Below are positions 3,307-62,769 of a stretch of DNA of 64,000 nt, piece after piece. Source of the stretch: an uncultured Spirochaetota bacterium. Lineage in GTDB: Bacteria; Spirochaetota; Spirochaetia; SZUA-6; Fen-1364. How positions within the stretch are numbered: the first letter of the stretch is position 1; each line of letters starts with the position of its first letter. The notes beneath the pieces were generated by a model. The model was given only the letters and a program-made list of their open reading frames with translations, was not told where the DNA came from and ran no database searches. A program made the translations under genes and the position numbers. The stretch is from assembly GCA_963820435.1 (NCBI GenBank), contig CAWGAC010000009.1, forward strand, positions 68,991 to 132,990. Direction: 5' to 3'.

Positions 3307-4281
3307 CTATTCTTTCCGCTGCACGAGCACGGCCACGATGATGATGATCCCCTTCACCGTCCCGGCGAGGAAGGGGGAGACTCCCATCAGCGTGAGCATG
3401 TTGCTGAGAATCCCGAGAATCAGCACTCCAAAAAACGTACCCACGACGCTTCCCTTGCCGCCGGTCATTCGCGTCCCGCCAATGATGACCGCCGCGATCG
3501 CATCCAGCTCGTAGCCGTTGCCCGAGCTGGCGGCAGAAACAGAATTGAGTCGTGACGTTTCCACCATGGCCGCGCACGCCACCATGGCTCCCCCGATCAT
3601 GTAGGTGATCAGCTTGATCCTGTTGACGTTGATCGCCGAGAGGTGAGAAGCCCGTTCGTTGGATCCGATCGAGTAGATGTAGCGTCCCAGCGGGATTTTC
3701 TGAGAGAACACGAAGACAATGGCAGTCAGCAGGATGAAGTAGATCACCGGATAAGAGATCCCGAGAAAATCCCCGTTCGAGATGACCCAGTACTCCTTCA
3801 CGTTCGCACTGATGCCCCCCCCGTTGAGAACATACAGCGCGAGTGAGCGGCACGTCGCCATGACGCCGAGGGTGGCGATGAAGGGTGTAACCTTCCCGCG
3901 AGTAATAATCATGCCGTTGACGCCGCCGATGACAATTCCGCTGGCGAGAGTGGTAATGAGCCCAAGGGGTATGCTTCGTGTCTCATTCAACACCCAGATC
4001 CCCGCTGCCCCTACCAAAACGAGCGAAGAGCCGACTGAAAGGTCGATTCCACCGGAGATGATGATCAGAGTCATTCCAAGAGAGATGATGCCGATGATCG
4101 ACGCCGTGCGAAGAATGTTGATGATGTTCGCCTGGCTCATGAAGTTGTCGCCGGCGAGGATCGTCGCGATGACCACCATCGCCACGAAAGCGACAATGAC
4201 GCTGTTCTCTCCGAGGAACTTCACCACGGGCCCCGCGATACGATGCTGCCGAACAATGGCGTACGTTGATTTCAGGCTCAT
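3307..4281 (-). CDS. CUT2 (ribose/RbsC-type) sugar ABC transporter permease
   Basis: 324 aa, multi-TM, GGIDLSVGS motif. 4-nt overlap with the upstream ATPase gene. Confidence 0.9.
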   Translation of the reverse strand: MSLKSTYAIVRQHRIAGPVVKFLGENSVIVAFVAMVVIATILAGDNFMSQANIINILRTASIIGIISLGMTLIIISGGIDLSVGSSLVLVGAAGIWVLNETRSIPLGLITTLASGIVIGGVNGMIITRGKVTPFIATLGVMATCRSLALYVLNGGGISANVKEYWVISNGDFLGISYPVIYFILLTAIVFVFSQKIPLGRYIYSIGSNERASHLSAINVNRIKLITYMIGGAMVACAAMVETSRLNSVSAASSGNGYELDAIAAVIIGGTRMTGGKGSVVGTFFGVLILGILSNMLTLMGVSPFLAGTVKGIIIIVAVLVQRKE

Positions 4282-5816
4282 GAGCGGATCCTTTCCTGCC
4301 GTGCAGGATCCGCCCGATTCTTCGCTCCCGTGGCATACATCATGATGCTTTCCTCCGTTGCGTCGGCGCGATCGAGAATCGTCGCGAGCTGACCGTGGAA
4401 CATGACAGCCACCCGATCACACACTTTCAGGATCTCGGGCACTTCGGAGGAGAGGAAGATGATTGACTTCCCCTCTGTGGCCATTCGCATCATGAGGTGA
4501 TAGATCTCGGCCTTTGCCCCGACATCGATGCCCTGCGTGGGGTTGTCAAGGATCATGATGCGCGAGCCCGCTTCGATCCATTTCGCAAGAACAACCTTTT
4601 GCTGGTTGCCGCCGCTGAGGGATGTGATCGGCGTGTTGACGCTTTGCACTTTTATGTTGAGATTCTCCACGTGCTGCTCGGTCCGCCGCGTCTCCCGCCG
4701 CGCATCGATGAAGGGGCCGCGTGTGAATCCCTTCAGCCGGGCCAAAGTGGTATTTGCGCGAACAGAAAAATCCTTGATGAGCGCGTTCTCCTTGCGGTTT
4801 TTCGGCGCAAGTCCTATGCCGACAGCTAGCGCTTTCTCGGGGTGAGTAATCGATCGGTTTGTCCCGTCCACGAGGATCTGCCCGCCTGATTTCCGTCGGG
4901 AGCCGATAATGCACTCGAAAAGCTCCGTGCGGCCGTCGCCCACGAGTCCTGTGAAGCCGAGGATTTCCCGCCTTTGCAGGCTGAAGCTGACGTCACGAAA
5001 GCATCCCTCGCTGGAAAGATGATCGACAGCGAGAACTACCTCACCCGGCTCTCTCGGCTTGTAATAGTGTTGAACCGCCATTTCCCGGCCCACCATCATC
5101 CGGGCAAGATCTTCTTCCGTCACACCGTCCCCGACCCTGCCGCTCGCTGCAATCGCGCCGTCGCGCAAAACGGTGTAGCCATCGCACACGGTCAGAACTT
5201 CCTTCAACTTGTGCGAGATGAAGACGACGGCGACCCCCTGCTCGCGCAGGGCGCCCATGATGGTGAAGAGATGGCGAATTTCATGCTCGGTGAGTGACGT
5301 GGTCGGCTCGTCCATGATGAGGATCTTCGCCTTCTGCAGAAGGGCGCGGCCGATTTCCACGACCTGCTTGTAGGAGGCATCCAGTTTCCCGACAATTTCC
5401 CGTGGATCGATGGTGACGTCCAGCTGGCTGAGAATCTCCCTGGTCTTCGCACACATGGCCTCTTCTGCAACGAACCCGAAGCGGGTGCGCAGCTCTTCCC
5501 CCAGGAAGAAGTTCTCATAGACGCGAAGGTCGTTGACGAGGTTCAACTCCTGGTGAATGAAACTGATACCGAGCCGTCGGGAAGCCGCCGGGTTCGGAAT
5601 TGCCACCCTGACCCCCGACAGGAAGATCTCCCCCGCGTCGGGCGGGAGGACGCCGCCGAGAATATTCATCAGGGTGGTCTTCCCGGCGCCGTTTTCGCCG
5701 ATCAGCGCGTGGATCTCCCCCACCTCCAGAGAGAAATCAACCCCGCGGAGTGCCGGCTGCCCGAGGAAGGACTTATTTATCCTCTTCATCTCCAGGGTCT
5801 TGCCTTCCATCATCAC
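4278..5816 (-). CDS. CUT2 sugar ABC transporter ATP-binding protein (tandem NBDs)
   Basis: 512 aa. Walker A GENGAGKTT, signature LSGGNQQKV in NBD2, duplicated NBD layout as in RbsA/MglA. Confidence 0.95.
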   Translation of the reverse strand: MMMEGKTLEMKRINKSFLGQPALRGVDFSLEVGEIHALIGENGAGKTTLMNILGGVLPPDAGEIFLSGVRVAIPNPAASRRLGISFIHQELNLVNDLRVYENFFLGEELRTRFGFVAEEAMCAKTREILSQLDVTIDPREIVGKLDASYKQVVEIGRALLQKAKILIMDEPTTSLTEHEIRHLFTIMGALREQGVAVVFISHKLKEVLTVCDGYTVLRDGAIAASGRVGDGVTEEDLARMMVGREMAVQHYYKPREPGEVVLAVDHLSSEGCFRDVSFSLQRREILGFTGLVGDGRTELFECIIGSRRKSGGQILVDGTNRSITHPEKALAVGIGLAPKNRKENALIKDFSVRANTTLARLKGFTRGPFIDARRETRRTEQHVENLNIKVQSVNTPITSLSGGNQQKVVLAKWIEAGSRIMILDNPTQGIDVGAKAEIYHLMMRMATEGKSIIFLSSEVPEILKVCDRVAVMFHGQLATILDRADATEESIMMYATGAKNRADPARQERIRS

Positions 5817-5854
5817 CTCTCACCGCCCGTGGAAAGAGCGGCGGGCCTTCAGCC

Positions 5855-6805
5855 TCAGTAGGGCGAATTGGCGTCGATATATTGAGCAACGTTATCCTTG
5901 GTCACCGCATTCGCCGGAACGATGATCGACTTCTGATCGGGCATCTTGCCGTTCATGATGTCGACCGCGTACTTCACTGCGTCCTTCACCATGAGAGGAG
6001 AATAGAGGAACGATGCAAGAGTGATGGGTCCGCCCGCCTGGATCTGTTTGAAGTACTCCTGCGCACCGCCCGCTCCGGTTTCGATCTTGATATCCTTGCG
6101 CTTGTTCTCTGCGATTGCCTGCAGGACTCCGATGGAAAGCTCATCGTCGATCGTAAACACCGCGTCGATGTGCTTCTCGGCATTGAGCAGGTCGCTCATG
6201 ATCTTCAGCCCGGCTTCTTTGGAGCTGTTCTCCGCGCCGACCTCCTTGGCGATCTTGATGTTGGGGAACGACTGCGTCATGGTGTCCTTGAACGCGTTCA
6301 CTCTGTCAGTATGCACGGAACCGTACGCAGGGACTCCGATCGATACGACAATGCCCTTCCCGCCGAGCTTCTCGCCGATGAACTTCGCGCCGTTCACGCC
6401 AATGCCTGCATTGTCGCCGCCCAGGTAGAAGGTGGGCTCCAGCTCTACCTTGCGATCGAAGATAATAAGCGGGATCTTTGCGTTGAGGACCCTCTGGGCA
6501 GCCGGAGTGAGCGGCTTGGTATCCGACGGCAGCATGACAATCGCGCTCACTTTCTGCGCAATGAGGTCATCCACTTTCGCGGACTGCTCATTGGGGTTTG
6601 CACCGGTTGTCAGGATGTACTTGACCCCAAGCTGTTCTGCCTGGTTCTTCGCGTTGTAGATTACCGCCGCTACCCAGCCGTGGTCAGCCGCCGGGAAGCT
6701 CATTCCCAGCACCTTTTCCTTCGGCTTGGCAGGCCCGCAGCTGGTGATGACCAGCACGGTCGCGATCAATGCGACCGCCACCAGAATCGAAACTCCTTTT
6801 CTCAT
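5855..6805 (-). CDS. periplasmic sugar-binding protein (RbsB-like, lipoprotein-type signal)
   Basis: ORF 5855..6862. I place the start at the second Met (6805) because MRKGVSILVAVALIATVLVITSCG is a lipoprotein-like signal peptide. Confidence 0.9.
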   Translation of the reverse strand: MRKGVSILVAVALIATVLVITSCGPAKPKEKVLGMSFPAADHGWVAAVIYNAKNQAEQLGVKYILTTGANPNEQSAKVDDLIAQKVSAIVMLPSDTKPLTPAAQRVLNAKIPLIIFDRKVELEPTFYLGGDNAGIGVNGAKFIGEKLGGKGIVVSIGVPAYGSVHTDRVNAFKDTMTQSFPNIKIAKEVGAENSSKEAGLKIMSDLLNAEKHIDAVFTIDDELSIGVLQAIAENKRKDIKIETGAGGAQEYFKQIQAGGPITLASFLYSPLMVKDAVKYAVDIMNGKMPDQKSIIVPANAVTKDNVAQYIDANSPY

Positions 6806-6944
6806 TGCCGACTCCTTGGAAAACCATGGCGTAATGCCGCCATATGAATTTAGTCCATCCATGCGGACGGACTCCTCGCGCCCTCAGAGAGCGTTCTGCT
6901 GCCTTCGCAGCTTCACAACGATACTTGTTTCATCAAGCAGCACA

Positions 6945-10000: not shown

Positions 10001-10019
10001 GCCCCCTCCTGCTCGGGCC

Positions 10020-12448: not shown

Positions 12449-12459
12449 GTATGCTCCTC

Positions 12460-13206
12460 CTATCCCGTGCCGCCTACCAGCTCGTTGTGCAGGATATAGC
12501 GGTCGGCGCGATAGTAGATCCGCAGGTACTCCATGGCGATGTCGTCCTGGGAAAAGGTTACCCGCTCGAAGTACAGGAGCGGAGCACCCGCCTTGATGGA
12601 AAGCATGTGCGCGATTTCAGGCGGCGCGGCGATGGCCTGGATGGTCTGCATGGCCCGTGACCAGCGCACGCCGTATTTCTTCTGCTTGATCTCGCGCAGG
12701 GAGTTCTCCTTGAAATCAATTTCGATGATCCCCGGCAGGTAACGATGCACCAGGAAGGATTCCTCTACGCACATCGGCTCGTTGTCCGCGAGGCGAAGCC
12801 GGTCGATGCGCGCCAGTTCCTCCCCTTCAGGCACCTTTAAAGCGAGGGCGATGTTCGCAGGAGCGGGAACAAGGCCCTGGAACAGGATACGTGTGCCGGG
12901 AACAAACCCCCGCTGGCGCATGTCATCCGTGAAGCTGATGATGCGGGTCAGCCCGTGCTCCAGCTTCGGATGGGCGACGAAAGTGCCCCTTCCCCTCTCC
13001 CTCTTGATATGTCCTTCCTTAGCCAGGATATCGAGCACCTTCCGCACTGTGATGCGACTCACGCCGTACTGGGCAACCAGTTCTGATTCCGGTGGAATCA
13101 TGTCTCCGGGCTCCCACTGCCGGGTGCCGATCTTGCCCTCCAGGAGCTCGTAGAGCTGGTGATACAGCGGCAACTTGCTGTTCGGGTTCAGGGTTTCGGC
13201 TGGCAT
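12460..13206 (-). CDS. GntR-family transcriptional regulator (HutC-like: wHTH + UTRA effector domain)
   Basis: 248 aa. PLYHQLYELLEGKIGTRQWEPGDMIPPESELVAQYGVSRITVRKVLDILAKEG is a GntR HTH; the C-terminal domain is UTRA-like. Confidence 0.9.
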   Translation of the reverse strand: MPAETLNPNSKLPLYHQLYELLEGKIGTRQWEPGDMIPPESELVAQYGVSRITVRKVLDILAKEGHIKRERGRGTFVAHPKLEHGLTRIISFTDDMRQRGFVPGTRILFQGLVPAPANIALALKVPEGEELARIDRLRLADNEPMCVEESFLVHRYLPGIIEIDFKENSLREIKQKKYGVRWSRAMQTIQAIAAPPEIAHMLSIKAGAPLLYFERVTFSQDDIAMEYLRIYYRADRYILHNELVGGTG

Positions 13207-50817: not shown

Positions 50818-52194
50818 ATGTCACCACGAACAAACGGGGGATTCACCCTCCTGCAGCGTCTGGGGCTGTTCGCTCTCCCCATCGGGCTCACGATCCTCGG
50901 ACCTGCATGGGCGCAGGACAAGGGCGCGGCGGCCGGGCCGGGCGGGACGCCCCCTGACGGCGCACCTGCCGGCACGGGCAGCGAACGGGCGGCAGGGCGC
51001 CCCTGGTACGATCTGCGAATGATGCCCGATCCGATCCTCGACCAGGTTCTGCTCTTCTACCTGGGCGAAGCGCGGATGGGCATGACGGACGTGGGAGAAG
51101 TCCTGGATACCGCGAGCCGGGTGAGGGGGGATGACGAGTACAGCTGGACTCGGGAATGGGAAAAAACCGCCGCGCGCATGCGCGCCGCCGCGGAAGCGGG
51201 GGAAAAGGCGGGGCATCGGCTCGGCGCCGGGGAGTCTTTCATGCGGGCAGCGGCCTATTACCGGGCTGCGTTGCACCGGCACCCGGACCCCGCGGCACCC
51301 GAGGTGCGGAGGCTTTCGGAGAATGAGGTTGCCTGCTTCGCGCGCGCCGTGCGGCTCCTCTCTCTCCCCGTCCAATCGGTAAGAATACCCTATGACGACA
51401 CGACTCTTCCCGGGTATTTTTTCAGGTCTGCCAATGCGGGAAAGAAAGCGCCGATTCTCATTGTCCACTCGGGCCGGGACGCATGGGCGGAGGATGACAC
51501 ATACATCGCCCAGGAGGCTCTCCGGCGCGGCTGGCATTGCCTGCTCTTCGACGGTCCCGGGCAGGGCCAGACCCTCCGCCTGCAGGGGCTTGCCTTCCGT
51601 CCTGACTGGGAGAAGGTGATCACCCCCGTGGTGGATTTCGTTGTCAAACAGCCGGGCGTGGACTCCAGTCGGATCGCGCTCATGGGCATATCAATGGGAG
51701 GGGCCCTGGCCCCGCGGGCCGCGGCATTCGAAAAACGCCTGAAGCTCCTGGTTGCCAACCCCGGGGTCCTGGATTGGGGGCGGGTCGTCACGGGATTCAT
51801 CGCCGAGCGCTATCCTGAGATTGCCGACATGCCGGAAAAAGATCCGCAGGGCTTCAATGCCCTCATGGCCCAGGTAATCGCGGGAAACCCCTTCATGCGA
51901 TGGGGACTCAGGGACACGATGTGGAAGCAGGGGTGCGCGACCCCGGCCCAGCTCGTCCAGGAAATGAAGAAATACACCAACAAGGGCTTTGCCGAGAAGA
52001 TCACCGCAAAGACCCTTGTCGTGGACGGTGAGGCGGAGGAGTTCGGCCAGGCAAAGGAGCTCCTCGCGGCGCTCCGCTGCCCGAAGGACTACATGCTGTT
52101 CACTGCTGCCGAGGCGGCGCAGCTGCACGTGCAGACGGGGTCGTCCGCCGTCTCCTGCCAGCGGATCTTCGACTGGCTTGAAGAAAACCTGTAA
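50818..52194 (+). CDS. secreted alpha/beta hydrolase
   Basis: 458 aa. Signal peptide plus a Gly/Pro/Ala-rich linker. Nucleophile elbow GISMGG. Confidence 0.8.
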   Translation: MSPRTNGGFTLLQRLGLFALPIGLTILGPAWAQDKGAAAGPGGTPPDGAPAGTGSERAAGRPWYDLRMMPDPILDQVLLFYLGEARMGMTDVGEVLDTASRVRGDDEYSWTREWEKTAARMRAAAEAGEKAGHRLGAGESFMRAAAYYRAALHRHPDPAAPEVRRLSENEVACFARAVRLLSLPVQSVRIPYDDTTLPGYFFRSANAGKKAPILIVHSGRDAWAEDDTYIAQEALRRGWHCLLFDGPGQGQTLRLQGLAFRPDWEKVITPVVDFVVKQPGVDSSRIALMGISMGGALAPRAAAFEKRLKLLVANPGVLDWGRVVTGFIAERYPEIADMPEKDPQGFNALMAQVIAGNPFMRWGLRDTMWKQGCATPAQLVQEMKKYTNKGFAEKITAKTLVVDGEAEEFGQAKELLAALRCPKDYMLFTAAEAAQLHVQTGSSAVSCQRIFDWLEENL

Positions 52195-52245: not shown

Positions 52246-53286
52246 ATGGTCAAAATATCAGGCAGGAAGCTGGAGCGGCTGGAGCATCTGGCCGACTCGC
52301 GGGGCGTGATCGCGGCGGCCGCGATGGACCAGCGCGGCTCGTTGAAAAAGTCCATTGCCAAGGAAAAGGGCGTGGATCCGTCACAGCTCTCCGATGACGT
52401 GATGAGCGAGTTCAAGGAGGCGGTCAGCAGGGTGCTCACGCCGCATGCCACCGCCATCCTCCTGGATACCGAGTTCGGCCAGCGCGCCATCAAGGCGCGC
52501 GCCAGGAACGCGGGCCTTCTGCTGGCATATGAGAAAACCGGCTACGATGCAACGCAGCCGGGAAGGCTGGGTGATCTGCTGGATCACCTGAGCGTCCAGC
52601 GCCTCGCGGCGTTCGGAGGAGATGCGGTGAAGCTCCTCCTTTACTACGCCGCGGACGACGATCCCCAGGTCAACGACATCAAGCACGCATGGATCGAACG
52701 GATAGGAGCGGAGTGCGCCGCGGAGGAGATGCCGCTGTTCCTCGAAATCGTGACGTATGATCCCAGGGGCGGGGAGGAAAAGAGCGTCTCATTTGCAAAG
52801 CGCAAGCCCGATCTGGTCATGGGGTACATGAGGGAGTTCTCCAAGCCCCAGTATCGCGTGGACGTGCTGAAAGTCGAGATCCCCTTCGATATCGCATTCG
52901 TCAAGGGGTCCAAGGCGAACAAGAGCGGCCAGGCGGCCTACGAAAAGCAGGAGGCCAAGGACATCCTCCTGCGAGCCGCCCGGTGCACGCACCTGCCGTT
53001 TATCTATCTTTCAGCCGGCGTGGACGATGACGTCTTTCGCGAGTCGCTCATCATGGCGGGAGAAGCCGGCGTGCCGTTCGCGGGGGTTCTCTGCGGCCGG
53101 GCCACGTGGAAAGAGGGAATACCCGTCTACGCGAAACGCGGGGCAAAGGCGCTGGAAGACTGGCTTGCCGACCGCGGCGTGAAAAACATCGAGACGCTGA
53201 ACGATGTATTGAAGCAGTACGCAAAGCCCTGGTACGCCGCGTACGGCGGACGTGACAAGGTGCAGGCGGTCGCGCGGACGGATTGA
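52246..53286 (+). CDS. class I tagatose-1,6-bisphosphate aldolase family protein (LacD-like)
   Basis: 346 aa. LADSRGVIAAAAMDQRGSL…AILLDTEFG…VKLLLYY…. Confidence 0.8.
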   Translation: MVKISGRKLERLEHLADSRGVIAAAAMDQRGSLKKSIAKEKGVDPSQLSDDVMSEFKEAVSRVLTPHATAILLDTEFGQRAIKARARNAGLLLAYEKTGYDATQPGRLGDLLDHLSVQRLAAFGGDAVKLLLYYAADDDPQVNDIKHAWIERIGAECAAEEMPLFLEIVTYDPRGGEEKSVSFAKRKPDLVMGYMREFSKPQYRVDVLKVEIPFDIAFVKGSKANKSGQAAYEKQEAKDILLRAARCTHLPFIYLSAGVDDDVFRESLIMAGEAGVPFAGVLCGRATWKEGIPVYAKRGAKALEDWLADRGVKNIETLNDVLKQYAKPWYAAYGGRDKVQAVARTD

Positions 53287-53424: not shown

Positions 53425-54387
53425 CTACGGAATCAGCACGATCTTGCCGAACGCGCCGGGCTCCAGCACTTTGCGGTGAGCCTCCGCAGCGTTTGCAAGC
53501 GGCAGCTCGGCTCCCACCACGGGGCTCAGCGTCCCATTGTCCAGCCCGGCAACGAGAGCGGCGTGGGCAGCCTCCACGTCCTGGTCGGAGATGTTCCACA
53601 ACAACATGCCATAGACCGCCGCGTCCCTGGACATCAGGTCCCGCGGATTGATGGTCGCCTCCCCGCGATTGCCGATCACCACAACGCGTCCGCGCGGCGC
53701 CAGCAGCTTCAAGTCAGCGCCGAGGTTGACGTTGGCGAGCATCTCGAGGATGACATCGACCCCCCTGTCCCCCGTCAACTCCCTCACCTGATCCTGGTAG
53801 CCGGCCGTCCGGTGATCCACCACGTGGTGCGCGCCCTCGCGGAGGACCAGATCCCGGCCCTTGTCCGTGCCGGCGGTGCCGATCACCCTCATGCCCCGGG
53901 CCCGCGCAAGCTGCACCGCCGCGACGCCGACCCCGCCGCTCGCGCCATGGACGAGGAGCGTTTCCCCTCCGCGGGCATGCGCAAGCTGCTCGAGCGCCCG
54001 ATAGGCGGTGGTGTAGGGCACGAACACGGCGGCGCCCTGGGCCCACGAGATCCGCTCGGGAAGCGGCTGGACCTGGGACTCCAGCGCGAGAGCGTATTCG
54101 GCGTACGTCCCGCTCACCGTCCGGGCCGTGTACACACGATCACCCGGCTTCACCCGGCGAATGCCGGATCCCACGGTCTCTATGACTCCGGCGCCGTCCG
54201 TGCCCGGTGTGTAGGGAAGCTCGGGCTTGCGCGAGTAGCTCCCGCTGCGCACATAAGTGTCGGCCGGATTGACGCCGGCCGCCTTGATGCGAACCACGAC
54301 CTGCCCCGGACCCGGCTTCGGCAGGGGGATCTCAGCGAGCTTCAGCACCTCGGGTCCGCCAAACTCCTTTACGACGATCGCTTTCAT
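53425..54387 (-). CDS. NADPH:quinone oxidoreductase (MDR/zeta-crystallin family)
   Basis: 320 aa. MKAIVVKEFGGPEVLKL…VHGASGGVGVAAVQLA. The ATG overlaps the kinase stop (ATGA). Confidence 0.9.
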   Translation of the reverse strand: MKAIVVKEFGGPEVLKLAEIPLPKPGPGQVVVRIKAAGVNPADTYVRSGSYSRKPELPYTPGTDGAGVIETVGSGIRRVKPGDRVYTARTVSGTYAEYALALESQVQPLPERISWAQGAAVFVPYTTAYRALEQLAHARGGETLLVHGASGGVGVAAVQLARARGMRVIGTAGTDKGRDLVLREGAHHVVDHRTAGYQDQVRELTGDRGVDVILEMLANVNLGADLKLLAPRGRVVVIGNRGEATINPRDLMSRDAAVYGMLLWNISDQDVEAAHAALVAGLDNGTLSPVVGAELPLANAAEAHRKVLEPGAFGKIVLIP

Positions 54388-56258
54388 GGTTCCTCCTCAG
54401 CGTCAGCCGTCGATTCAGGCAGCCGGATATCGAATTGGCACCCGGAGCTTTCGAGGTTCTTGACGCTCATGCTCCCTCCGTGCCTCTGCACGATCTGGTA
54501 GCAGATCGATAAACCGAGCCCGATGTTGTCCCCCTTCCCCTTCCGTGTCGAGTAGAAGGGTATGAATATGTCATTGAGGTTCGTATCCTGGATTCCCGGC
54601 CCTGAGTCGGTAAATGTCACATTCACCGCGCCCCTGCCCTGCTCATCCCGCGTCCGGCGGGTTTCTATGTTGATGATCCCGCCGGCGGGCATGGCCTCGA
54701 AGCTGTTCTTCACCAGGTTGAGGACCACCTGCTTCATCTCGTTCCTGTTGACCGTGGCCATGAGCGTCTTTTCCGGCGAATCGAACGTGATCGTGATGTG
54801 CTTGTAATCCGCGTTATGACGGAGGAGGCTCAGTATGTTGCGGATCAGGTCATTGAGGTCGATCTCCTCCCTTTCCACCGTGTCCATGTTCGAAAGGGAA
54901 AGGAGATTCTTCACGATGCCCGCGATATAGGTGATCTCCTCATGCAGCTCGTCGACCGCCTCGTGCAGCTTCTTGTCATCGAACGAGAACTTGATGTGCG
55001 TCAGATAGTTGTAGACGATTTCCAGCGGATTATTGATCTCGTGCGCGACCCCGGCGGCGAGCAGGCCGAGTGAAGCGAGCTTCTCCGAGAGGATGACCTG
55101 TTTCTGCAGCTTGTCGAACTCGGTGACGTCTTCGATGATGATGATGTTCCCGATGCGCGCTCCCTCGTCATAGATGGGGAGGGTCCTGACATTGTTCACC
55201 GTGTCCGCTCCGCCAATGACCAGCGGGACGTGGTAGAATGCCCTGCCTTCGTCGGAGAGCAGCGCATCCCGTATGAGCCCGAGCGTCCCGCTGTTCCGCG
55301 CCCCCAGCAGGTCCGCGAGCGGCTTGTCCTCGAATTGCACGCCTTCGAGGCGGAAGTATTCCCTGCAGCGCTCGTTCACGATCTTGACGTTCTCCTGCGC
55401 GTCACTCACGATGAGGTTCACCGGCAGATTGAGCAGGACCGCCTCGTTGTACTTGAGGAACTGGTTGAACTCGCGTTTCAGGTTTCCCGAATCGTTGCGC
55501 GCGTAGACCTGCGTATAGGTGAGCTTGAGCAGGTTCATCCTGTCGATGTGCTCGACGTCATCCGTCACCAGGATCTCGCCGTTCTTGACTATGCTGACAC
55601 GGTCCGCCACGTCGTAGACGTCGTCAATGCGGTGCGTGATGAAGAGAACGGCCATGCCTTCCTTTTTCATCCCGTCCACGATGCGCAGCACCCGGGCGAG
55701 ATCTCCCGAGGACAGCTTCTCCAGGGCTTCGTCCAGGATCAGCAGTCTCGGTCTTTTCTGCAGCGCGCACAGGATCGAGGTCAGGACCCGGTCGGGAAGG
55801 TTGAGGTGGCTCACCGTCGCGGAAGCGTCGAGATTGAAGTCGTGGGAAGAGAGGTATTCCTCCGCATGGCGCAGGATGTCCCTCCTGCTCAGCATGCCCC
55901 AGCGCTTCAACTTTCCGTCCAGGAAAAAGATGTTCTCGGCCACGGAGAAATAGTCGTTGAGCTGGACCTGCTGGTGCACCATCTCGATGCCCATGCGATG
56001 CGCAAGACTCGTGGACAGGGCGGCGTATCTCCCGCTGCCGAATTCGATGGATCCCCTCTTGGGCTTCATGTTGCCGCTGATGACCATGCCGAGCGAGGAT
56101 TTTCCCGCTCCATGCTCCCCCACCACCGCATGGACCTTCGAGGGAAAGAGGGAGAGGCTGACGTCTTTCAGCGCTTCGATCTGGCCATAGTCCAGCGATA
56201 TGTGGGCAAGACGGAGCAGCTCGTGGGTTTCGCCCCCGATGCTACGCATTGATCCCAT
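54384..56258 (-). CDS. soluble sensor histidine kinase with N-terminal ABC-type nucleotide-binding domain (NBD-PAS-HisKA-HATPase_c)
   Basis: 624-aa uninterrupted ORF. NBD: GEHGAGKSS, VHQQ, LLILDEA, ITHR. PAS-like region at about aa 265-385. HisKA AAGVAHEINNPL. HATPase DSGPGI…GLGLSICYQIV. No TM segment. Confidence 0.9.
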   Translation of the reverse strand: MGSMRSIGGETHELLRLAHISLDYGQIEALKDVSLSLFPSKVHAVVGEHGAGKSSLGMVISGNMKPKRGSIEFGSGRYAALSTSLAHRMGIEMVHQQVQLNDYFSVAENIFFLDGKLKRWGMLSRRDILRHAEEYLSSHDFNLDASATVSHLNLPDRVLTSILCALQKRPRLLILDEALEKLSSGDLARVLRIVDGMKKEGMAVLFITHRIDDVYDVADRVSIVKNGEILVTDDVEHIDRMNLLKLTYTQVYARNDSGNLKREFNQFLKYNEAVLLNLPVNLIVSDAQENVKIVNERCREYFRLEGVQFEDKPLADLLGARNSGTLGLIRDALLSDEGRAFYHVPLVIGGADTVNNVRTLPIYDEGARIGNIIIIEDVTEFDKLQKQVILSEKLASLGLLAAGVAHEINNPLEIVYNYLTHIKFSFDDKKLHEAVDELHEEITYIAGIVKNLLSLSNMDTVEREEIDLNDLIRNILSLLRHNADYKHITITFDSPEKTLMATVNRNEMKQVVLNLVKNSFEAMPAGGIINIETRRTRDEQGRGAVNVTFTDSGPGIQDTNLNDIFIPFYSTRKGKGDNIGLGLSICYQIVQRHGGSMSVKNLESSGCQFDIRLPESTADAEEEP

Positions 56259-57574
56259 ATCGCTCCATCTTGTTGTACAGCGTCTTCCTGCTCATGTTCA
56301 GAAGCTGCGCGACCCGGGACCTGTTGTAGTTGGTGCTCTGGAGGGTCTTCAGGATCAGGTGCTTTTCCATATCCTCACGGATGTTGCGAGGGGTCGCGTT
56401 CAGCCCGCCGTCCAGGAAGCTGACCGGGAGGTCCTCCATCCCGATCCGTTCGCCCGCCGACATTGCCACCGAATAGTTGATCGTATTCTTCAGCTCTCTG
56501 ACGTTCCCCGGCCACGAGTGATCGAGGAACCGGGCCAGGACTTCCGGGGCAACCTCCTTCCGGGCGCCGGGGCTGGAATCGTGATACTCCGCCAGGAAAT
56601 GTTCGACGAGCAGAGGGATGTCCTCTTTCCTCTCCCGGAGGGGAGGAACGGTAAGCACCGCCGCATTGAGCCTGTAGAAGAGGTCTTCGCGGAACAGGTT
56701 TTTCTCCATCAACGCTCCGAGGTCCTTGTTCGTGGCGGCGATGAAGCGCACATCCACCCGGATCGTCTCGCTCCCCCCCAGCCTTCTGATCTCGCTGTTC
56801 TGGAGGGTCCGGAGGATCTTTGCCTGGATACCGAGGGGCATGTCTCCGATCTCGTCGAGAAACAGGGAGCTTCCATTGGCCTTCTCGAACACCCCCTTGA
56901 AGGCGGAATCCGCGCCGGTGTATGCCCCCCTCTCGTGCCCGAACAGCTCGTTGTCCAGGAGGGTCTCGGGAAAAGCGACGCAATTGATTTTGATCATCTT
57001 CCGGGCGCCGCGCGCGGAGCTCGGCATGGATATTGTCCGCGATGACCTCCTTGCCGGTCCCGCTCTCGCCGCAAATCAGAACCGGGAGATTGGTGGCCGC
57101 GAGCTTCTCCACCTTCCGGCAGAGGTCGAGCATGCGTGCGTCCTGGGTGACGATGGTCGCGGAGAGCTCCATGAGCCGGCTGCGCAGCTGGACGTTTTCT
57201 TCCCGCAGCCTCGAGCACTCGTACGCGTTCTCCACGGTCTTCAGAAGCTCGTCGAAATCAAGCGGCTTCTTCACGTAGTCGAACGCCCCCAGCTTGATCG
57301 ACTGTACAGCCGTATCTATGGACGCGTACGCGGTGATCATGATCACGGGGACCCGGGCGTTGATTGCCAGGAGGCGCTTGAGGATATCAATGCCGCTCTC
57401 ATCGGCCAGCATCACGTCCAGAAGAACGACATCGATCCTGTTGTCGGAAAAAACCGCGACTGCCTGCTGGCCATTGGTCGCGTAGAAAGCCTTGTAACCG
57501 ACGTGCTCGAAGTTCCAGGCCAGGCTCTTGCAGAGCTTCTCTTTATCGTCGATGACCAGGATGCTGCTTTTCAT
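56242..57574 (-). pseudogene. sigma-54-dependent response regulator (NtrC/Fis family: REC + AAA+ + HTH); one frameshift
   Basis: ORF 56375..57574 (REC: ILVIDD…VVLLDVMLADESG; Walker A GESGTGKEVIADNIHA) joins ORF 56242..57027 (SSARGARKMIKINCVAFPE…ERGAYTGA…VRELKN…SRVAQLLNMSRKTLYNKM) at about 57022. Confidence 0.9.
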
Positions 57575-57659
57575 CTGTTGATTGTCACCAAGTTACCCAA
57601 TCGCCCCTCGCAATATGAGTAATTTTTACGCACTCACTATAGGGCCGTTGCCTGCGGGC

Positions 57660-57679
57660 TGTCAACGATTTTCTTGACA
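57660..57679. promoter_or_regulatory. candidate enhancer (UAS) for the NtrC-type regulator
   Basis: Perfect inverted repeat TGTCAA-N8-TTGACA centred about 80 bp upstream of the -24 element. Confidence 0.45.
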
Positions 57680-57746: not shown

Positions 57747-57762
57747 TGGCATGAGAAATGCT
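57747..57762 (+). promoter_or_regulatory. sigma-54 (-24/-12) promoter
   Basis: TGGCATGAGAAATGCT. The GG and GC are 12 nt apart, exactly as in TGGCAC-N5-TTGC. It lies 61 nt upstream of the SBP ATG, next to the NtrC-type regulator gene. Confidence 0.7.
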
Positions 57763-57822
57763 TGGGAGGATAGCAAATCTGGAAGTTTTCCAGGGTTCCC
57801 ATCCGAAGAAGGAGGAGAGAGC

Positions 57823-58767
57823 ATGAAGAAATTGCTGTTCATTCTCGTTGCGGTGTCGCTCGTATTTGCCGCAACATCCGCGACAGCCCAGGCAAAGGGA
57901 CAGATCAAGCTCGCCATGGTGAACCTGGCGCTCACGAGTCCCTATTTCATCGGCATGTCCCAGGCGGTCAAGCAGGAGTGCGATCGCTTCACGAACATCA
58001 AGCTCGTCACCACCGATGCAAAGGGCGACGCGCAGAAGCTGACCTCTGACGTGGAGGACGTCCTGGCCCAGAACGTGAACGGGCTCATCATCAGCGCTGC
58101 ATGGCTGGAGGCGGCCCCTGAAGCACTGGACGCCATCCAGAAGGCAGGAGTACCCGTGGTGCTCGTGGACAGGAAGCTGAAAGGCGGAGACTATACGAGC
58201 TGGGTCGGCCCCGACAACACGCGCATCGGCGTCCAGGACGGCGAGTACATCGTGAAGCGGCTGAACGGCAAAGGCCGGGTCGTGGTCCTGCGGGGCGGGC
58301 CCGCGGACAACTCCATTGGCCTGGATCGGACCAACGGGATGCTTTCCGCGGTAAAGAAGGCGGGCATGGAAGTCGTCATGGCCCCGAACTTCGGCGGCTG
58401 GAGCTCCGACGGCGGGTTCAAGCTCATGGAAGACATGCTTGCCAAGTACAAGAAGATCGACGCGGTCTTCGCGGAGAACGACTCCATGGCACTGGGCGCG
58501 CAGAAAGCCATCGCCGATGCGGGACGCTCCAAAGAGATGTTCCTTTGCGGCGCTGACGGCGAGAAAGCCGCCCTCGTTGAAATCAGCAAGAAAGCGAACT
58601 TTGCCGCCACAGGGCTTAACAGCTCGGACCAGATCGGCCGCGCGGGGTTCACCCGACTCATGTCGCTCCTGGCAGGCGCGCAGTCTGAAAAGGACACGAT
58701 ACTGCCCTCACCCCTCATCACCATCGACAACGTCGCTCGGTTCCTCATTCCCGAGAGCGTATTCTAA
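57823..58767 (+). CDS. periplasmic sugar-binding protein (RbsB-like, CUT2)
   Basis: ORF 57751..58767. Start moved to ATG 57823 (RBS GAAGGAGGAG; signal MKKLLFILVAVSLVFAATSATAQA). Confidence 0.9.
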   Translation: MKKLLFILVAVSLVFAATSATAQAKGQIKLAMVNLALTSPYFIGMSQAVKQECDRFTNIKLVTTDAKGDAQKLTSDVEDVLAQNVNGLIISAAWLEAAPEALDAIQKAGVPVVLVDRKLKGGDYTSWVGPDNTRIGVQDGEYIVKRLNGKGRVVVLRGGPADNSIGLDRTNGMLSAVKKAGMEVVMAPNFGGWSSDGGFKLMEDMLAKYKKIDAVFAENDSMALGAQKAIADAGRSKEMFLCGADGEKAALVEISKKANFAATGLNSSDQIGRAGFTRLMSLLAGAQSEKDTILPSPLITIDNVARFLIPESVF

Positions 58768-58823: not shown

Positions 58824-60287
58824 ATGCAAATGCTCATCGACGGCAGGTGGGTCGACGCCCGCGACGGAAAGACCCGCTCCATTCGAAATCCGGGAAACGG
58901 CGAGGCGATCGATACCGTCCCTATGGCCACGCTCCGGGACGTGGACGCTGCACTGGAGGCGGCCGTTGCGGGAAGCGCGCGCATGCGCGCCACCCCCGCC
59001 CATGCGCGATCGGCAATCCTCGCCCGCGCGGCCGACATCATAGGCTCGAGGAAAGAGGAGCTCGCGACGCTTCTGGCCCGGGAGAACGGGAAGCCGATCC
59101 GCCAGACGAGGGACGAGATCGAGGTCGCCTCCCGGATTTTTCGCGGGTTCGCCGAGGAGGCCAGGCGGCTCTTCGGCCGCACCGTCCCCATGGACGCGAT
59201 ACCCGGGCAGGAGCGGCATTTCGCCATGACCATCAGGCAGCCGCTGGGAGTCGTGGCCGCGATTGTTCCCTTCAACTACCCGGCGGAGCTCTACGCGCAC
59301 AAGGCCGCCCCCGCGCTCGCGGCAGGCAACGCGGTGATTGCCAAGCCGCCCAGCGACTGCCCTCTCACGATGCTCCGGATTGCCGCGATACTGGAGGAGG
59401 CGGGCCTCCCCCGCGCGGCCCATCAGATGATCACAGGGCCGGGTCAGCTTGTCGGCGAGCGCCTGGCCATGAGTCCCATCGTGCGACTCGTCTCGGTGAC
59501 GGGAAGCACGGCAGTGGGAAAGCGGCTCGCGCAGCTCGGCGCGGAGACACTGAAAAAGATCCACCTGGAGCTCGGCGGCAACGATCCGGTCATCATCTGC
59601 GCGGACGCGGATCTGGAGAAGGCGGCCGAGGCCGTGGTCCTGGGCCGGCTGGCGCGCGGGAACGGGCAGATCTGCTGCGCGGTCAAGCGCGTGTTTGTCG
59701 ACGCGCGCGTCATGGACAAGTTTGCGAAGCGTCTCGTGGAAAAGGCCGCGGCCCTCAAGGTGGGGGATCAGCTTGACGAGGACACCGACGTGGGACCGCT
59801 CATCACGGAGGAGGCCGCCCGGAAGGTGGAGGACGCGATTGGAGACGCGGTGAAGGCGGGCGCAAAAATCCTGTTCGGCGGCGGGCGTCGTGGTTCGTTC
59901 ATGATGCCGACCGTCCTGACCAACGTGCCCGTGGGGACGCATCTGTTCAAGGACGAGACCTTCGGCCCCGTGGCGCCTCTGGTCGCCTTTTCCACCGAAG
60001 ATGACGCGGTGCGCATGGCCAACGACAGCCCCTTCGGGCTGCAGGCAGCCGTATTCACCGCCGATATCACGCGGGCAATGAACATGGCCTGGCGCCTGGA
60101 GGTGGGGGGCGTGATCGTGAACTGGTCCTCGGCCCTCCGTGCGGAGAATCTCCCCTTCGGGGGAACCAAGGCGAGCGGGTACGGCCGCGAGGGTCTGCAC
60201 GACACGCTCCTCGAAATGACGGAACAGAAGGTGATCCTGTTCCACAACGCGCTCTCGGTGTACGATGCCGGGCAGGCCGGTGCATGA
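58824..60287 (+). CDS. NAD(P)-dependent aldehyde dehydrogenase
   Basis: 487 aa. …FNYPAEL…, ELGGNDP, …GQICCAVKR… (catalytic Cys), …PFGGTKASGYGREG. Confidence 0.9.
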   Translation: MQMLIDGRWVDARDGKTRSIRNPGNGEAIDTVPMATLRDVDAALEAAVAGSARMRATPAHARSAILARAADIIGSRKEELATLLARENGKPIRQTRDEIEVASRIFRGFAEEARRLFGRTVPMDAIPGQERHFAMTIRQPLGVVAAIVPFNYPAELYAHKAAPALAAGNAVIAKPPSDCPLTMLRIAAILEEAGLPRAAHQMITGPGQLVGERLAMSPIVRLVSVTGSTAVGKRLAQLGAETLKKIHLELGGNDPVIICADADLEKAAEAVVLGRLARGNGQICCAVKRVFVDARVMDKFAKRLVEKAAALKVGDQLDEDTDVGPLITEEAARKVEDAIGDAVKAGAKILFGGGRRGSFMMPTVLTNVPVGTHLFKDETFGPVAPLVAFSTEDDAVRMANDSPFGLQAAVFTADITRAMNMAWRLEVGGVIVNWSSALRAENLPFGGTKASGYGREGLHDTLLEMTEQKVILFHNALSVYDAGQAGA

Positions 60288-61819
60288 GCAATGAGAGCTT
60301 CCTCCGCATGGAGGCCATACACAAAAGGTTCGGCGGCACGGTGGCCTTGCGGAACGTCTCCATGTCCGCCGCCCTCGGCGAGGTCCACGCCGTCGTGGGG
60401 GAAAACGGAGCCGGCAAGTCCACGCTCATGAACATACTCTCCGGAGCCGTCACTCCGGACTCGGGAACAATTGCAATAGGCGGCAGGACGGTCGTTCTGG
60501 ACACGCCGCACGAGGCAAACCGGTTGGGGATCCGCGCGGTGCACCAGGAGTTCAGCCTTGTGCGTCACCTGACCATTGCGGAGAACATCCTCATGGGCAA
60601 GATGCCTACGCGCGGCTCAGGACGCGTGTGGGTGGACTGGGCCGGCACCAACCGACGCGCCCGCTCGATCCTGGACGACCTCGGGTTTCCGCACCTGGAC
60701 GTGCGCACGCGCGTCTCACACCTGAGCGTATCCCACCAGCAGATCGTGGAGATTGCCAAGGCCCTCGCCGAGAAACCCCGCATCCTCATCCTGGACGAAC
60801 CCTCGGCCGTTCTCTCCAAGGATGAGCTGACGCTGTTGTTTTCCCTCATCCGGAGGCTTGCGGCGGAGAATACCCTCGTCATCTACATCTCCCACAGGCT
60901 GGAGGAGGTCTTCGAGATAGCCGATCGTATCACCGTTCTCAGGGACGGTGAGGTCGTGGGCACCGTTCGCCGGGACGAGGTGGACCAGAACGCCCTGATC
61001 CGCATGATGGTGGGCCGTTCCGTTGAAGAGATCTATCCCGCGCGCGCCGCGCGGTCCGCGGAGGAGATCCTGTCCGTGCAGGGGCTTGGCCGCGCGGGGG
61101 AGTTCCACGACGTTTCCTTTTCTCTCCACGGGGGAGAGGTCGTCGGAGTGTTCGGCCTTGTGGGGAGCGGAAGAACCGCCGTGGCCCGCAGCATCTTCGG
61201 GGCTGAGCCGCCGACATCCGGCAGCGTCTTTCTGGACGGCAGGAAGGTACACGTGAAATCCCCCCAGGACGCGGTGAACGCGGGGATCTCCTTTGTGACG
61301 GAGGACAGGAAGCGGGACGGGCTGGTGATGAGCTGCACGCTGCGTGACAACATCAGCCTGGCCACTCTGCGTCACATGAGCCATGGATTGATCCTGGATC
61401 GACGGCTGCAGGACAGGATGGTGCAAAGCAAGGTGGATGAGCTGGCCATCCGTCCGTCGGACATCGGGCAGAAGGCCTGGACGCTGAGCGGGGGCAACCA
61501 GCAGAAGGTAGTCATTGCGAAATGGCTGCTCTCCCGCACCAGGGTCCTGCTGCTGGACGAGCCTACCCGGGGCGTGGACATCGGCGCGAAGGTCGAGATC
61601 TATCACATCATCAATGGTCTCGTGGAGGCGGGGATCGGGGTCCTGCTCATCTCGTCGGAAATGTCCGAGGTACTGGGCATGAGCGATCGAATCATCGTCA
61701 TGAGGGAGGGACGGCTCGTGGGAAATCTCACCAGGGCGGAGGCCGACGAAGAGAAGCTGCTCCAGTACGCCGCCGGCGTGGACGGGGCGGCCACCATACA
61801 GGCGAGGGGAACAACATGA
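60284..61819 (+). CDS. CUT2 sugar ABC transporter ATP-binding protein (tandem NBDs)
   Basis: 511 aa. GENGAGKST, LSVSHQQIVEIAKAL, LSGGNQQKVVIAKWL. ATGA overlaps on both sides. Confidence 0.95.
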   Translation: MSNESFLRMEAIHKRFGGTVALRNVSMSAALGEVHAVVGENGAGKSTLMNILSGAVTPDSGTIAIGGRTVVLDTPHEANRLGIRAVHQEFSLVRHLTIAENILMGKMPTRGSGRVWVDWAGTNRRARSILDDLGFPHLDVRTRVSHLSVSHQQIVEIAKALAEKPRILILDEPSAVLSKDELTLLFSLIRRLAAENTLVIYISHRLEEVFEIADRITVLRDGEVVGTVRRDEVDQNALIRMMVGRSVEEIYPARAARSAEEILSVQGLGRAGEFHDVSFSLHGGEVVGVFGLVGSGRTAVARSIFGAEPPTSGSVFLDGRKVHVKSPQDAVNAGISFVTEDRKRDGLVMSCTLRDNISLATLRHMSHGLILDRRLQDRMVQSKVDELAIRPSDIGQKAWTLSGGNQQKVVIAKWLLSRTRVLLLDEPTRGVDIGAKVEIYHIINGLVEAGIGVLLISSEMSEVLGMSDRIIVMREGRLVGNLTRAEADEEKLLQYAAGVDGAATIQARGTT

Positions 61820-62769
61820 AAGCGACACTCCCGCTCATGGAGAGGGCACGACAGATGGTGAGGCTGCGGTGGTCCGACTTCATCTTCATGGGGATTTTCG
61901 TCGTGTTGATACTGATCAGCTCCCTCATTTCCGAGACCTTTTTCACTACAAGGAACCTGATCAACATCTCCCGCCAGATCGTCACCAACGGTCTCATCAG
62001 CCTCGGCATGCTGATCGTGATGCTCACCGGCGGCGTGGACCTTTCCGTAGGATCCATCGTGGCAATCTGCGGCATCATGGCCACCGGATTGCAGAAACAG
62101 ATGCCCACCCCGGTGGCAATCCTCGTCGCGCTCATGGTCGGGACTACCGTCGGGATGGCCAACGGCTTTTTCATCGCACGTTTCAAGCTGCAGCCCTTCA
62201 TCGTGACCCTGGCCACCATGGGCATCATTCGCGGCGCGACCTACGTTTACTCGGAAACGCCGCAATCACCCGTGGATCCGCTGTTTCGTTCGCTCCTGGG
62301 CGGTGGTTTCGTCGGACCTATTCCGAGGTCGGCAATCATCATGCTCGCCTTCTTCATAGTCGTGTGGTTCTTTCTCAACAGGACAATCCCGGGTCGCGCC
62401 GTTGTGGCCATTGGGGGGAACGAGGAAGCGGTGCGGCTTGCCGGCATAAACGTCAAGGGTCACCTCCTCATGGCCTACATGGTCTGTGGTCTTTTTGCGG
62501 GCTTCGCGGGTGTCCTCCTGGCCTCCCGGCTTGGCATCGCGCAACCGAGCTTCGGGCTCGGCTTCGAGATGGATGCGCTTGCCGCCGTGGTCATCGGGGG
62601 GGGAATCATGGGCGGGGGTGGCGGCGGAGCCATCGGGACGTTGTGGGGGGTGCTCATCCTGGGGGTCATCGACAACCTGTTGAACCAGTACAACGTCCAG
62701 TCGTATTATCAGCAGATCATCAAGGGTCTCATCATTCTTGCCGCGGTGCTCTCGCGGAGGAAAAAATGA
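61816..62769 (+). CDS. CUT2 (RbsC-type) ABC transporter permease
   Basis: Start at ATG 61816 (MKATLPLMERARQ…) inside ORF 61522..62769. GGVDLSVGS motif, multi-TM. Confidence 0.9.
   Translation: MKATLPLMERARQMVRLRWSDFIFMGIFVVLILISSLISETFFTTRNLINISRQIVTNGLISLGMLIVMLTGGVDLSVGSIVAICGIMATGLQKQMPTPVAILVALMVGTTVGMANGFFIARFKLQPFIVTLATMGIIRGATYVYSETPQSPVDPLFRSLLGGGFVGPIPRSAIIMLAFFIVVWFFLNRTIPGRAVVAIGGNEEAVRLAGINVKGHLLMAYMVCGLFAGFAGVLLASRLGIAQPSFGLGFEMDALAAVVIGGGIMGGGGGGAIGTLWGVLILGVIDNLLNQYNVQSYYQQIIKGLIILAAVLSRRKK

Follow-up and report, generated by a model that had tools for sequence, protein, structure and literature searches.

A soluble histidine kinase family that carries an ABC ATPase domain of CUT2 type and is encoded beside CUT2 importer operons

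In the XylFII-LytS-YesN system, a paralogue of a component of a CUT2-type ATP-binding cassette (ABC) importer has been recruited as a two-component sensor: XylFII is a periplasmic binding protein that acts from outside on a membrane kinase, and the system induces the CUT2 importer xylFGH. It is listed among the sugar-sensing two-component systems that depend on a substrate-binding protein (SBP) (PMC8050422). In the Bce-type flux-sensing modules of Firmicutes, the kinase BceS has no extracytoplasmic sensor domain and is genetically linked to an ABC transporter, the activity of which is its input, and it induces the transporter genes (PMC6978683). PhoR has a cytoplasmic PAS domain and no periplasmic sensor; it reads an ABC importer at the side of the nucleotide-binding domains (NBDs), namely PstB via PhoU (PMC6978683). 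For neither Pst-PhoU-PhoR nor BceAB-BceS is it yet clear by what mechanism the ABC transporter informs the kinase; in both, the contacts are non-covalent and hard to trap. Here we describe a family of histidine kinases that carry an ABC NBD in their own polypeptide, starting from a member encoded in a stretch of 64,000 nucleotides (nt) from an uncultured Spirochaetota bacterium (contig CAWGAC010000009.1, positions 68,991 to 132,990), hereafter the window.

The kinase is predicted to be soluble, and it is encoded directly downstream of an NtrC-type response regulator and beside a divergent operon for a CUT2 importer. In the best explanation that we can offer, to which we give roughly even odds (about 50%), kinase and regulator form a circuit with an input module that derives from the first NBD (NBD1) of CUT2 ATPases and docks on the cognate permease. 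The kinase, its domains and the ATPase to which it is compared lie in the window as follows.

54384..56258, minus strand: NBD-PAS-HisKA-HATPase_c sensor histidine kinase, a stop-free open reading frame (ORF) of 624 amino acids (aa) with four Pfam domains above their cut-offs
55509..56219, minus strand: ABC nucleotide-binding domain of CUT2 NBD1 type, residues 14-250 (Pfam, NCBIfam, BLASTP, AlphaFold2 and Foldseek)
55119..55442, minus strand: PAS domain, residues 273-380 (PAS_4 at 8.7e-08, and the AlphaFold2 model)
54882..55070, minus strand: DHp/HisKA domain with the phospho-acceptor H406 (Pfam; AHEINNPL invariant in 74/74 family members)
54411..54743, minus strand: HATPase_c catalytic domain, with N box N514/N518, G1 D551-G555 and G2 G580-G582 invariant
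60284..61819, plus strand: tandem-NBD CUT2 importer ATPase (AraG/XylG/RbsA-like), assigned by profile matches

An initial annotation, made from the letters of the window, had described this ORF as continuous and free of transmembrane (TM) segments. Both points hold, and the strand, which had been left unstated, is minus. No TM segment was found in the kinase, the highest mean Kyte-Doolittle hydropathy over 19 residues being only 1.37, in the DHp helix. Gene callers start the kinase of other assemblies at Met4 (56249), which gives a product of 621 aa. Profile search against Pfam revealed the four domains that had been expected, that is, ABC_tran at residues 30-179 (68.3 bits against a cut-off of 25), PAS_4 at residues 277-381 (32.8 against 23.1), HisKA at residues 397-459 (34.4 against 26.9) and HATPase_c at residues 506-616 (76.5 against 26.4). 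The first of these scores excludes the counter-possibility raised together with the annotation, that the N-terminal region is not an ABC NBD at all. Moreover, residues 14-255 align to the first NBD of CUT2 ATPases in NCBIfam (YtfR at 9e-45, and also AraG, XylG, GguA, RbsA and MglA), and residues 260-620 align to kinases of the AtoS/ZraS type. Compared by BLASTP to the neighbouring ATPase, residues 1-260 share 35% identity over 244 aa with NBD1 (3e-41) and 25% identity with NBD2 (3e-11). The N-terminal ~250 residues are indeed of the CUT2 first-NBD type, as had been proposed.

All the motifs that had been quoted were found in the kinase or in the ATPase. Walker A reads GEHGAGKSS in the kinase and GENGAGKST in the ATPase, the Q-loop VHQQ and VHQE, Walker B LLILDEA and ILILDEP, the H-loop ITHR and ISHR, and the signature LNLPDRVL and LSVSHQQI, respectively; the kinase ORF further contains AAGVAHEINNPL, DSGPGI and GLGLSI. 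By residue number, the sites of the kinase NBD are the A-loop Y24, Walker A G47-S54, the Q-loop Q96, the degenerate signature L152-R157, Walker B with E177, and H209 of the H-loop. The signature of the kinase is degenerate as described, but the contrast that had been drawn with the transporter does not stand, since LSVSHQQI is itself degenerate, which is the normal state of NBD1 in this subfamily.

By profile and motif tests, the kinase belongs both to the ABC NBD superfamily and to the HisKA kinases. It has the HisKA and HATPase_c profiles along with the H box, N box, G1 and G2, and its NBD has LNLPDR, with both glycines missing, in place of the canonical LSGGQ signature. The same tests place it outside the CUT2 ATPase equivalogs: instead of two NBDs in ~500 aa there is one, followed by PAS-HisKA-HATPase_c, and the scores fall far below the equivalog cut-offs (YtfR 153 bits against 850 and AraG 146.5 against 689, over the NBD1 half only). 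The NCBIfam equivalogs for kinases are not reached either (AtoS 209 bits against 646 and ZraS 150.7 against 479, over residues 260-620 only). As to whether the architecture is catalogued, family members have entries in sequence databases that carry only automatic names, for instance "signal transduction histidine kinase/ABC-type ... ATPase" or "ATP-binding cassette domain-containing protein", but no NCBIfam family model matches the kinase at its cut-off.

The structure of the kinase was predicted by AlphaFold2 from an alignment of 43 family members. The predicted local distance difference test (pLDDT) score is ~90 for the NBD and ~80 for the PAS domain, whereas linker residues 241-271 score low; residues 251-272, ahead of the PAS domain, are modelled with low confidence as a linker and a helix. 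Structural similarity search using Foldseek revealed that the N-terminal half of the model resembles the NBDs of LptB, MJ1267 and MetN, with target-normalised TM-scores of ~0.8-0.87, and that the C-terminal half resembles PAS-linked kinases, such as YF1 (YF1/LOV-HK type). In addition, about 400 columns of the model, from its N-terminal half, align to NBDs that bear C-terminal regulatory domains, namely those of MetN, FbpC and a MalK-like protein. None of the Foldseek targets is a solved chain that spans both halves of the kinase, and a sequence search of the PDB with the kinase NBD gave no close relative, the matches being generic NBDs at ~1e-17.

The kinase belongs to a large family. An identical 621-aa protein is encoded on at least 23 independent contigs from ENA, JGI and Logan assemblies, four of which are 99.5-99.65% identical to the window over 5.47 kb, with zero indels in the kinase gene. 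A word-indexed search found more than 120 clusters at 90% identity that have the same four Pfam domains and cover ~97% of the query at 48-100% identity. Using the linker and PAS domain (157 aa) as query, an exhaustive HMMER search returned 99 representatives at 50% identity with E<=1e-10, which share one architecture, because nearly all of them are 600-645 aa long and match at ~230-390. This HMMER search found no other architecture bearing the linker and PAS domain of the family; outside the family it matched generic PAS proteins, with E>1e-9, and its shorter matches look like fragments. Species-representative genomes hold at least 180 relatives, the top 80 of which all span the NBD and the PAS domain, and genomic relatives with the full-length architecture reach down to ~38% identity. 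The assembly indel that the initial annotation had named as a possible cause of a false fusion is thus not borne out, and neither it nor a decaying pseudogene fits the independent contigs, the indel-free gene, the family-wide architecture and the conserved catalytic motifs, which together rule them out.

Members of the family are spread over many Spirochaetota lineages and also occur in KSB3/Modulibacteria (Vecturithrix and Moduliflexus), with outliers in one Opitutae metagenome-assembled genome (MAG), one Bacteroidia MAG and, among the clusters, one Desulfomarina protein. Several genomes have 2-4 paralogues, and four lie on a single 7.29-Mb Vecturithrix contig. The nearest genome to the window kinase is a Spirochaetota MAG with 95% identity (locus L010). 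Searches of the full-text literature, with subscription-only papers outside their scope, returned no publication that describes an NBD-fused kinase, only reviews of transporter- and SBP-coupled sensing, which agrees with the initial annotation, to which no experimentally characterised sensor of this architecture was known. The family is widespread but apparently unstudied.

We built a neighbour-joining tree, on identity distances and without bootstrap, from 78 kinase NBDs and from NBD1 and NBD2 of 65 neighbouring ATPases. The kinase NBDs (n=78) form one clade, which is sister to the NBD1 clade (n=65) and not nested in it, and NBD2 falls outside. Mean identity is 45% within the kinase NBDs, compared to 28% with NBD1 and 20% with NBD2. 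The NBD1 of its own neighbour is no closer to a kinase NBD than other NBD1s are, with a median rank of 27/65. The monophyly of the kinase NBDs and this rank argue against both repeated recruitment of, and gene conversion from, the neighbouring ATPase; as judged from the tree, the fusion is an ancient and single event, with no re-making or homogenisation since.

Conservation was counted over 74 species-level family members. The A-loop Y24 is kept, G47, G52, K53 and D176 are present in 74/74, Q96 and E177 in 73/74, and H209 in 68/74. By these counts the ATP-site residues of the kinase NBD are under purifying selection, and the domain retains all the residues needed for binding ATP and probably those for hydrolysis as well. 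The signature follows the consensus L-x-L-[S/P]-[D/E]-[R/Q/K], with both glycines gone in all members, and the segment after Walker B is DEALEKLS. As the degenerate signature and the DEALEKLS segment are both conserved, they suggest that the dimer face of the NBD is in use and not decaying.

In the neighbouring ATPases, NBD1 has an intact Walker A, Walker B-Glu and H-loop (ISHR) with a degenerate signature (LSVAQQQ), and NBD2 is the reverse, with a degenerate Walker A (GSGRT), ISSE in place of the H-loop His, and a canonical LSGGNQQK. The residues of the tandem CUT2 ATPase therefore make up one consensus site. A homodimer of kinase NBDs would instead have two sites, in each of which an intact P-loop side faces a degenerate signature, so the proposal that two juxtaposed kinase NBDs mimic the tandem ATPase has to be given up. 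Along the kinase, mean identity is highest in the C-terminal half of the RecA subdomain (55%) and in DHp (56%), and lowest in the NBD helical subdomain (35%) and the PAS domain (38%). Many positions of the PAS domain are invariant among paralogues with different operons. The helical subdomains of ABC ATPases are generally variable, so that the variability of the NBD is ambiguous as a hint of transporter contact.

The partners of the kinase can be read from the genes and sites around it, of which the following bear on the circuit.

56242..57574, minus strand: cognate NtrC-type response regulator (REC, sigma-54 AAA+, lid and HTH_8), in split ORFs that hold complementary parts of Sigma54_activat
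57616..57632, no strand: palindrome TGAGTAA-N3-TTACGCA, conserved across 14 orthologous intergenic regions (TTACNCA)
57747..57762, plus strand: sigma-54 -24/-12 promoter element TGGCATGAGAAATGCT, ~60 nt upstream of the SBP ATG at 57823 and kept in 14/14 orthologous loci
57823..58767, plus strand: sugar-binding protein of the periplasm (Peripla_BP_4, RbsB-like), encoded at the head of the regulated operon and called with 314 aa on near-identical contigs
61816..62769, plus strand: CUT2 permease, RbsC/AraH-like (RbsC model 4.6e-74; BPD_transp_2, PF02653, in near-identical contigs)

On the minus strand, the stop of the regulator overlaps the start of the kinase by 8-17 nt, and a gene for an alcohol dehydrogenase follows. 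The divergent operon on the plus strand encodes, in order, the binding protein, an aldehyde dehydrogenase, the tandem ATPase, the permease and a RidA-like protein. This arrangement was compared over 80 non-redundant loci, of which 75 have sufficient upstream DNA and 51 have long flanks. At 74-75 of these 75 loci the gene directly upstream, in the same orientation, encodes an NtrC-type regulator. The kinase shares an adjacent REC-AAA+-HTH_8 regulator with the AtoS/ZraS/NtrB-like kinases. A CUT2 (BPD_transp_2) permease is encoded within 10 kb at 50/51 loci and a tandem ATPase at 48/51; binding proteins were found in 38 loci by a single-query tblastn that is insensitive to divergent ones. Sigma-54 -24/-12 elements on the divergent strand occur within 450 nt in 53/75 loci, compared to 0.017 expected per region. 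Near the start codon of the regulator, an extra conserved copy of the half-site, GTTACCCA, occurs at 57592-57599. The palindrome and this half-site, ~115-130 nt upstream of the -24 element and close to that start codon, are likely candidates for upstream activator sites of the NtrC-type regulator.

Altogether, the conserved regulator, the CUT2 neighbours and the divergent sigma-54 element with its upstream palindrome make a circuit from the kinase through the NtrC-type regulator to the sigma-54 promoter of the CUT2 importer and catabolic operon well supported at the level of sequence. The kinase combines the lack of an extracytoplasmic sensor with a genetic link to an ABC transporter, as expected of transporter-coupled sensing. 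The link to the neighbouring importer that the initial annotation had drawn is strengthened by the conserved synteny in ~50 loci and by the conserved promoter, and the survey of neighbourhoods that it had called for gave a stereotyped CUT2/NtrC-type context. Phosphotransfer to the adjacent, translationally coupled regulator, its presumed partner, and activation of the operon would complete the circuit.

The longest ORF of the binding protein begins at 57751, and a start there would put the sigma-54 promoter within the ORF; a conserved ribosome-binding site, AGGAGGAG (57810-57817), and the 314-aa calls favour the ATG at 57823. A further motif of the intergenic region, CTGTCAA at 57659-57665, is separately conserved.

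In our favoured mechanism, the soluble kinase and the regulator encoded upstream of it would switch on the sigma-54 promoter of the divergent importer and catabolic operon in response to the state of the transporter, which the kinase probably reads directly. The two NBDs of the kinase dimer would replace the transport ATPase by docking on the cognate dimer of CUT2 permeases at its coupling helices, and the external sugar-loaded binding protein would drive ATP-dependent closure of both NBDs. The resulting tweezer motion would pass through the linker and the PAS domain to the DHp helices and switch the balance of kinase and phosphatase. Docking, which we infer more than any other step, is favoured because the kinase is soluble and has no part outside, because its NBD shares descent with a CUT2 motor, because there are several operon-tied paralogues and because the ATP site is under selection. 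Since a genome can hold several of these kinases, every one of them tied to a CUT2 operon of its own, each would need a specific input. We extend this only tentatively, at less than even odds, to a receptor built from an ABC importer, in which a permease dimer and its binding protein are capped from the cytoplasm by the pair of kinase NBDs in place of the transport ATPase, ligand-induced and ATP-dependent NBD closure, the power stroke of ABC transport, is turned directly into histidine autophosphorylation, and the duplicated permease of some lineages is a non-transporting receptor subunit.

At nine loci (L028, L029, L042, L045, L046, L051, L052, L065 and L070) there is a second CUT2 permease paralogue without an ATPase of its own. 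In this sub-family it ends a convergent catabolic operon (Zn-dependent alcohol dehydrogenase, FGGY kinase, RpiB/LacAB, SDR and AraA-like isomerase) and abuts or overlaps the 3' end of the kinase gene. At L028 the second permease (11838-12905, minus strand) shares 72% identity with the permease of the operon. This second permease is a weak pointer to contact with the transporter, since it may serve as a receptor subunit of its own, or it may just complete a heterodimeric permease.

We compared the evolutionary distances of the kinase domains with those of the transporter by mirror-tree analysis. NBD distances correlate with those of the cognate permease and ATPase at r = 0.64-0.69, above the values for PAS or DHp-CA, and after control for DHp-CA the partial Mantel r is 0.44-0.48 with the NBD, compared to 0.23-0.28 with PAS. 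This co-divergence is a weak and indirect hint of contact with the transporter. Several points weigh against docking. The co-divergence signal is confounded, because linked genes are co-inherited and diverge together anyway, and the NBD of a kinase is no closer to the NBD1 of its own neighbour than to others. The loci come with a complete transport ATPase throughout, so that the kinase must compete with it or use a sub-population of the permease. The extra permease of the nine loci could be merely the second subunit of a heterodimer, and the variability of PAS, second only to that of the helical subdomain, also fits a domain that binds a ligand.

Sensing could also be purely cytoplasmic and need no docking, with the PAS domain binding the imported sugar or a catabolite and the NBD acting as an ATP/ADP-dependent dimerisation or energy-charge switch. 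Such a kinase would be soluble, as this one is; the ATP-binding residues are invariant, the C-terminal half is like PAS-linked cytoplasmic kinases of the YF1/LOV-HK type, and the PAS domain and the helical subdomain vary most, as if PAS pockets differ between paralogues. We regard it as the main rival but as less likely than docking, since it leaves unexplained why the input is a derivative of CUT2 NBD1 beside CUT2 operons (50/51) and not beside other transporter types. An energy sensor, moreover, needs no paralogue per transporter, and many PAS positions are the same in paralogues of different operons. Pairing of the kinase NBD with the transport ATPase, for example with LSGGNQQK of NBD2 in the open tandem ATPase, would let the kinase report the ATPase cycle, comparable to PhoR-PhoU-PstB. 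The motifs are complementary, the kinase NBD having an intact P-loop, Walker B and H-loop with a degenerate signature and NBD2 the opposite, and the NBD-ATPase distance correlation equals the NBD-permease one (r = 0.69, partial 0.45-0.48). NBD2 is, however, held covalently to an NBD1 in the same chain, to which a partner from outside would lose out, and we know of no precedent for a kinase NBD that pairs with a transport ATPase; this form of contact is unlikely.

The kept catalytic Glu and H-loop His would be in line with a bifunctional protein, the NBD dimer of which stands in for the transport ATPase and energises the permease, while signalling is a side effect. As both signature glycines are missing in all members, the homodimer would lack a consensus hydrolytic site, and a complete tandem ATPase is encoded at 48/51 loci. 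Such a role is very improbable. Finally, the one-base indel in the adjacent regulator gene shows that the sequence of the window is not free of error, which would suit an artefact in which a half ABC ATPase gene and a PAS kinase gene were joined by an assembly indel, or a pseudogene in decay. Set beside the identical product on at least 23 contigs, the indel-free comparison with four assemblies, and the architecture and catalytic motifs kept in more than 120 clusters down to 48% identity and in relatives to ~38%, this is hardly credible. Docking on the permease remains the reading that we prefer.

The regulator gene itself is split in the window by one extra base at 57023/57024 (C on the coding strand, in CATGCCGAG). 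The regulator is intact, with 443 aa, in four independent near-identical assemblies, to which the extra base is the sole indel over 5.47 kb; the frameshift is either an assembly error or a strain-specific pseudogene. At L010 (~8685-10020), comparison with L005 and the window shows an extra G of its own in the same regulator gene, ~150 nt upstream of the insertion site of the window, which points either to the indel errors that long-read MAGs typically carry or to decay that arose independently.

Three further features belong to the two transcription units.

53425..54387, minus strand: Zn-dependent alcohol dehydrogenase, the start of which overlaps the kinase stop by 4 nt
57779..57793, plus strand: inverted repeat (6+6) CTGGAA-GTT-TTCCAG, located in the 5' leader of the importer operon and kept across the 14 orthologous loci
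58824..60287, plus strand: aldehyde dehydrogenase in the transporter operon, with the same gene order in L002 and L085

Because its gene overlaps that of the kinase, to which it is translationally coupled, the alcohol dehydrogenase is probably co-transcribed with the regulator and the kinase. The leader repeat lies past the sigma-54 promoter and ahead of the ribosome-binding site of the binding protein; elsewhere it reads CCGGAA..TTCCGG, with both arms changed and the repeat kept. It could form a hairpin in the leader RNA, or serve as an operator to which a second regulator binds. An Rfam scan of the window gave zero matches. Past the alcohol dehydrogenase, the other strand carries genes at 52246-53286 (+) and 50818-52194 (+), for a DeoC/LacD-family aldolase and an alpha/beta hydrolase. 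The alcohol dehydrogenase, aldolase, hydrolase and aldehyde dehydrogenase suggest a sugar or polyol pathway. Paralogue loci of KSB3 carry an FGGY kinase, two glycerol-3-phosphate-dehydrogenase-like genes and RpiB instead.

A second CUT2 importer operon lies at 3307-6862 of the window on the minus strand, with a binding protein (5855..6862), a tandem ATPase (4278..5816) and a permease (3307..4281), after which come genes for a GFO/IDH/MocA oxidoreductase and a URO-D-like protein. Neither an NBD-kinase nor an NtrC-type regulator adjoins this operon, so this sensor is not used by every CUT2 system in the genome.

Compared to known systems, the NBD-kinase shares with BceAB-BceS a kinase that lacks an extracytoplasmic sensor and is genetically linked to the ABC transporter it regulates. 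However, BceS spans the membrane with two TM helices and makes non-covalent contact with an exporter of the MacB/FtsX type, whereas the NBD-kinase is soluble and has its NBD covalently fused. The partners differ as well, an exporter with an OmpR-type regulator in the one case and a CUT2 binding-protein-dependent importer with an NtrC-type sigma-54 activator in the other. The kinase of the window is therefore no two-TM intramembrane kinase of the Bce type, and its transporter is a BPD_transp_2/CUT2 importer in place of an FtsX-type exporter. With PstSCAB-PhoU-PhoR it has in common a cytoplasmic PAS kinase without periplasmic sensor that is tied to an ABC importer. PhoR is membrane-anchored, needs PhoU, has no NBD of its own and acts on the regulator PhoB, whereas the NBD-kinase carries an NBD paralogue in its own polypeptide; no PhoU-like gene is conserved near NBD-kinases among the neighbourhoods examined. 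XylFII-LytS recruits a periplasmic binding protein, whereas the NBD-kinase recruits a cytoplasmic NBD, which is fused to a soluble kinase. From all three systems the family is set apart by this covalent fusion, by its solubility and by an output through a sigma-54 activator.

Among ABC proteins, the nearest likeness is to NBD1 of the CUT2 ATPases RbsA, XylG, AraG, MglA and YtfR, with 28-38% identity and the same A-loop, Walker A, Q-loop, Walker B-Glu and H-loop; both lack the D-loop Asp and both have a degenerate signature. Compared to these ATPases, the kinase has a single NBD and no NBD2, is fused to PAS-DHp-CA and falls in a separate clade. Its signature is further degenerated (L-x-L-S/P-D/E-R), DEALEKLS stands for DEPTSSLS, and the P-loop has His for Asn (GEHGAGKS). 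Similar to MalK, MetN and ModC, the NBD is followed by a C-terminal dimerising domain beneath it. For these importer NBDs the role of the C-terminal domain is to regulate transport or to bind a regulator, and MalK also sequesters the activator MalT, whereas the C-terminal part of the NBD-kinase is a complete histidine kinase.

These NBD-kinases, present in several copies per genome, appear to be a main means of controlling CUT2 importers in Spirochaetota and KSB3/Modulibacteria, so that an understanding of them should improve regulon prediction in these largely uncultured groups. A motor domain fused to its kinase offers a soluble system in a single polypeptide, in which the nucleotide state and closure of the NBD can be linked to DHp signalling. 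The family, of which we found no described example, is best placed as transporter-coupled two-component sensing with a new fused input module, and through it the P-loop ABC cassette joins the list of histidine-kinase input modules.

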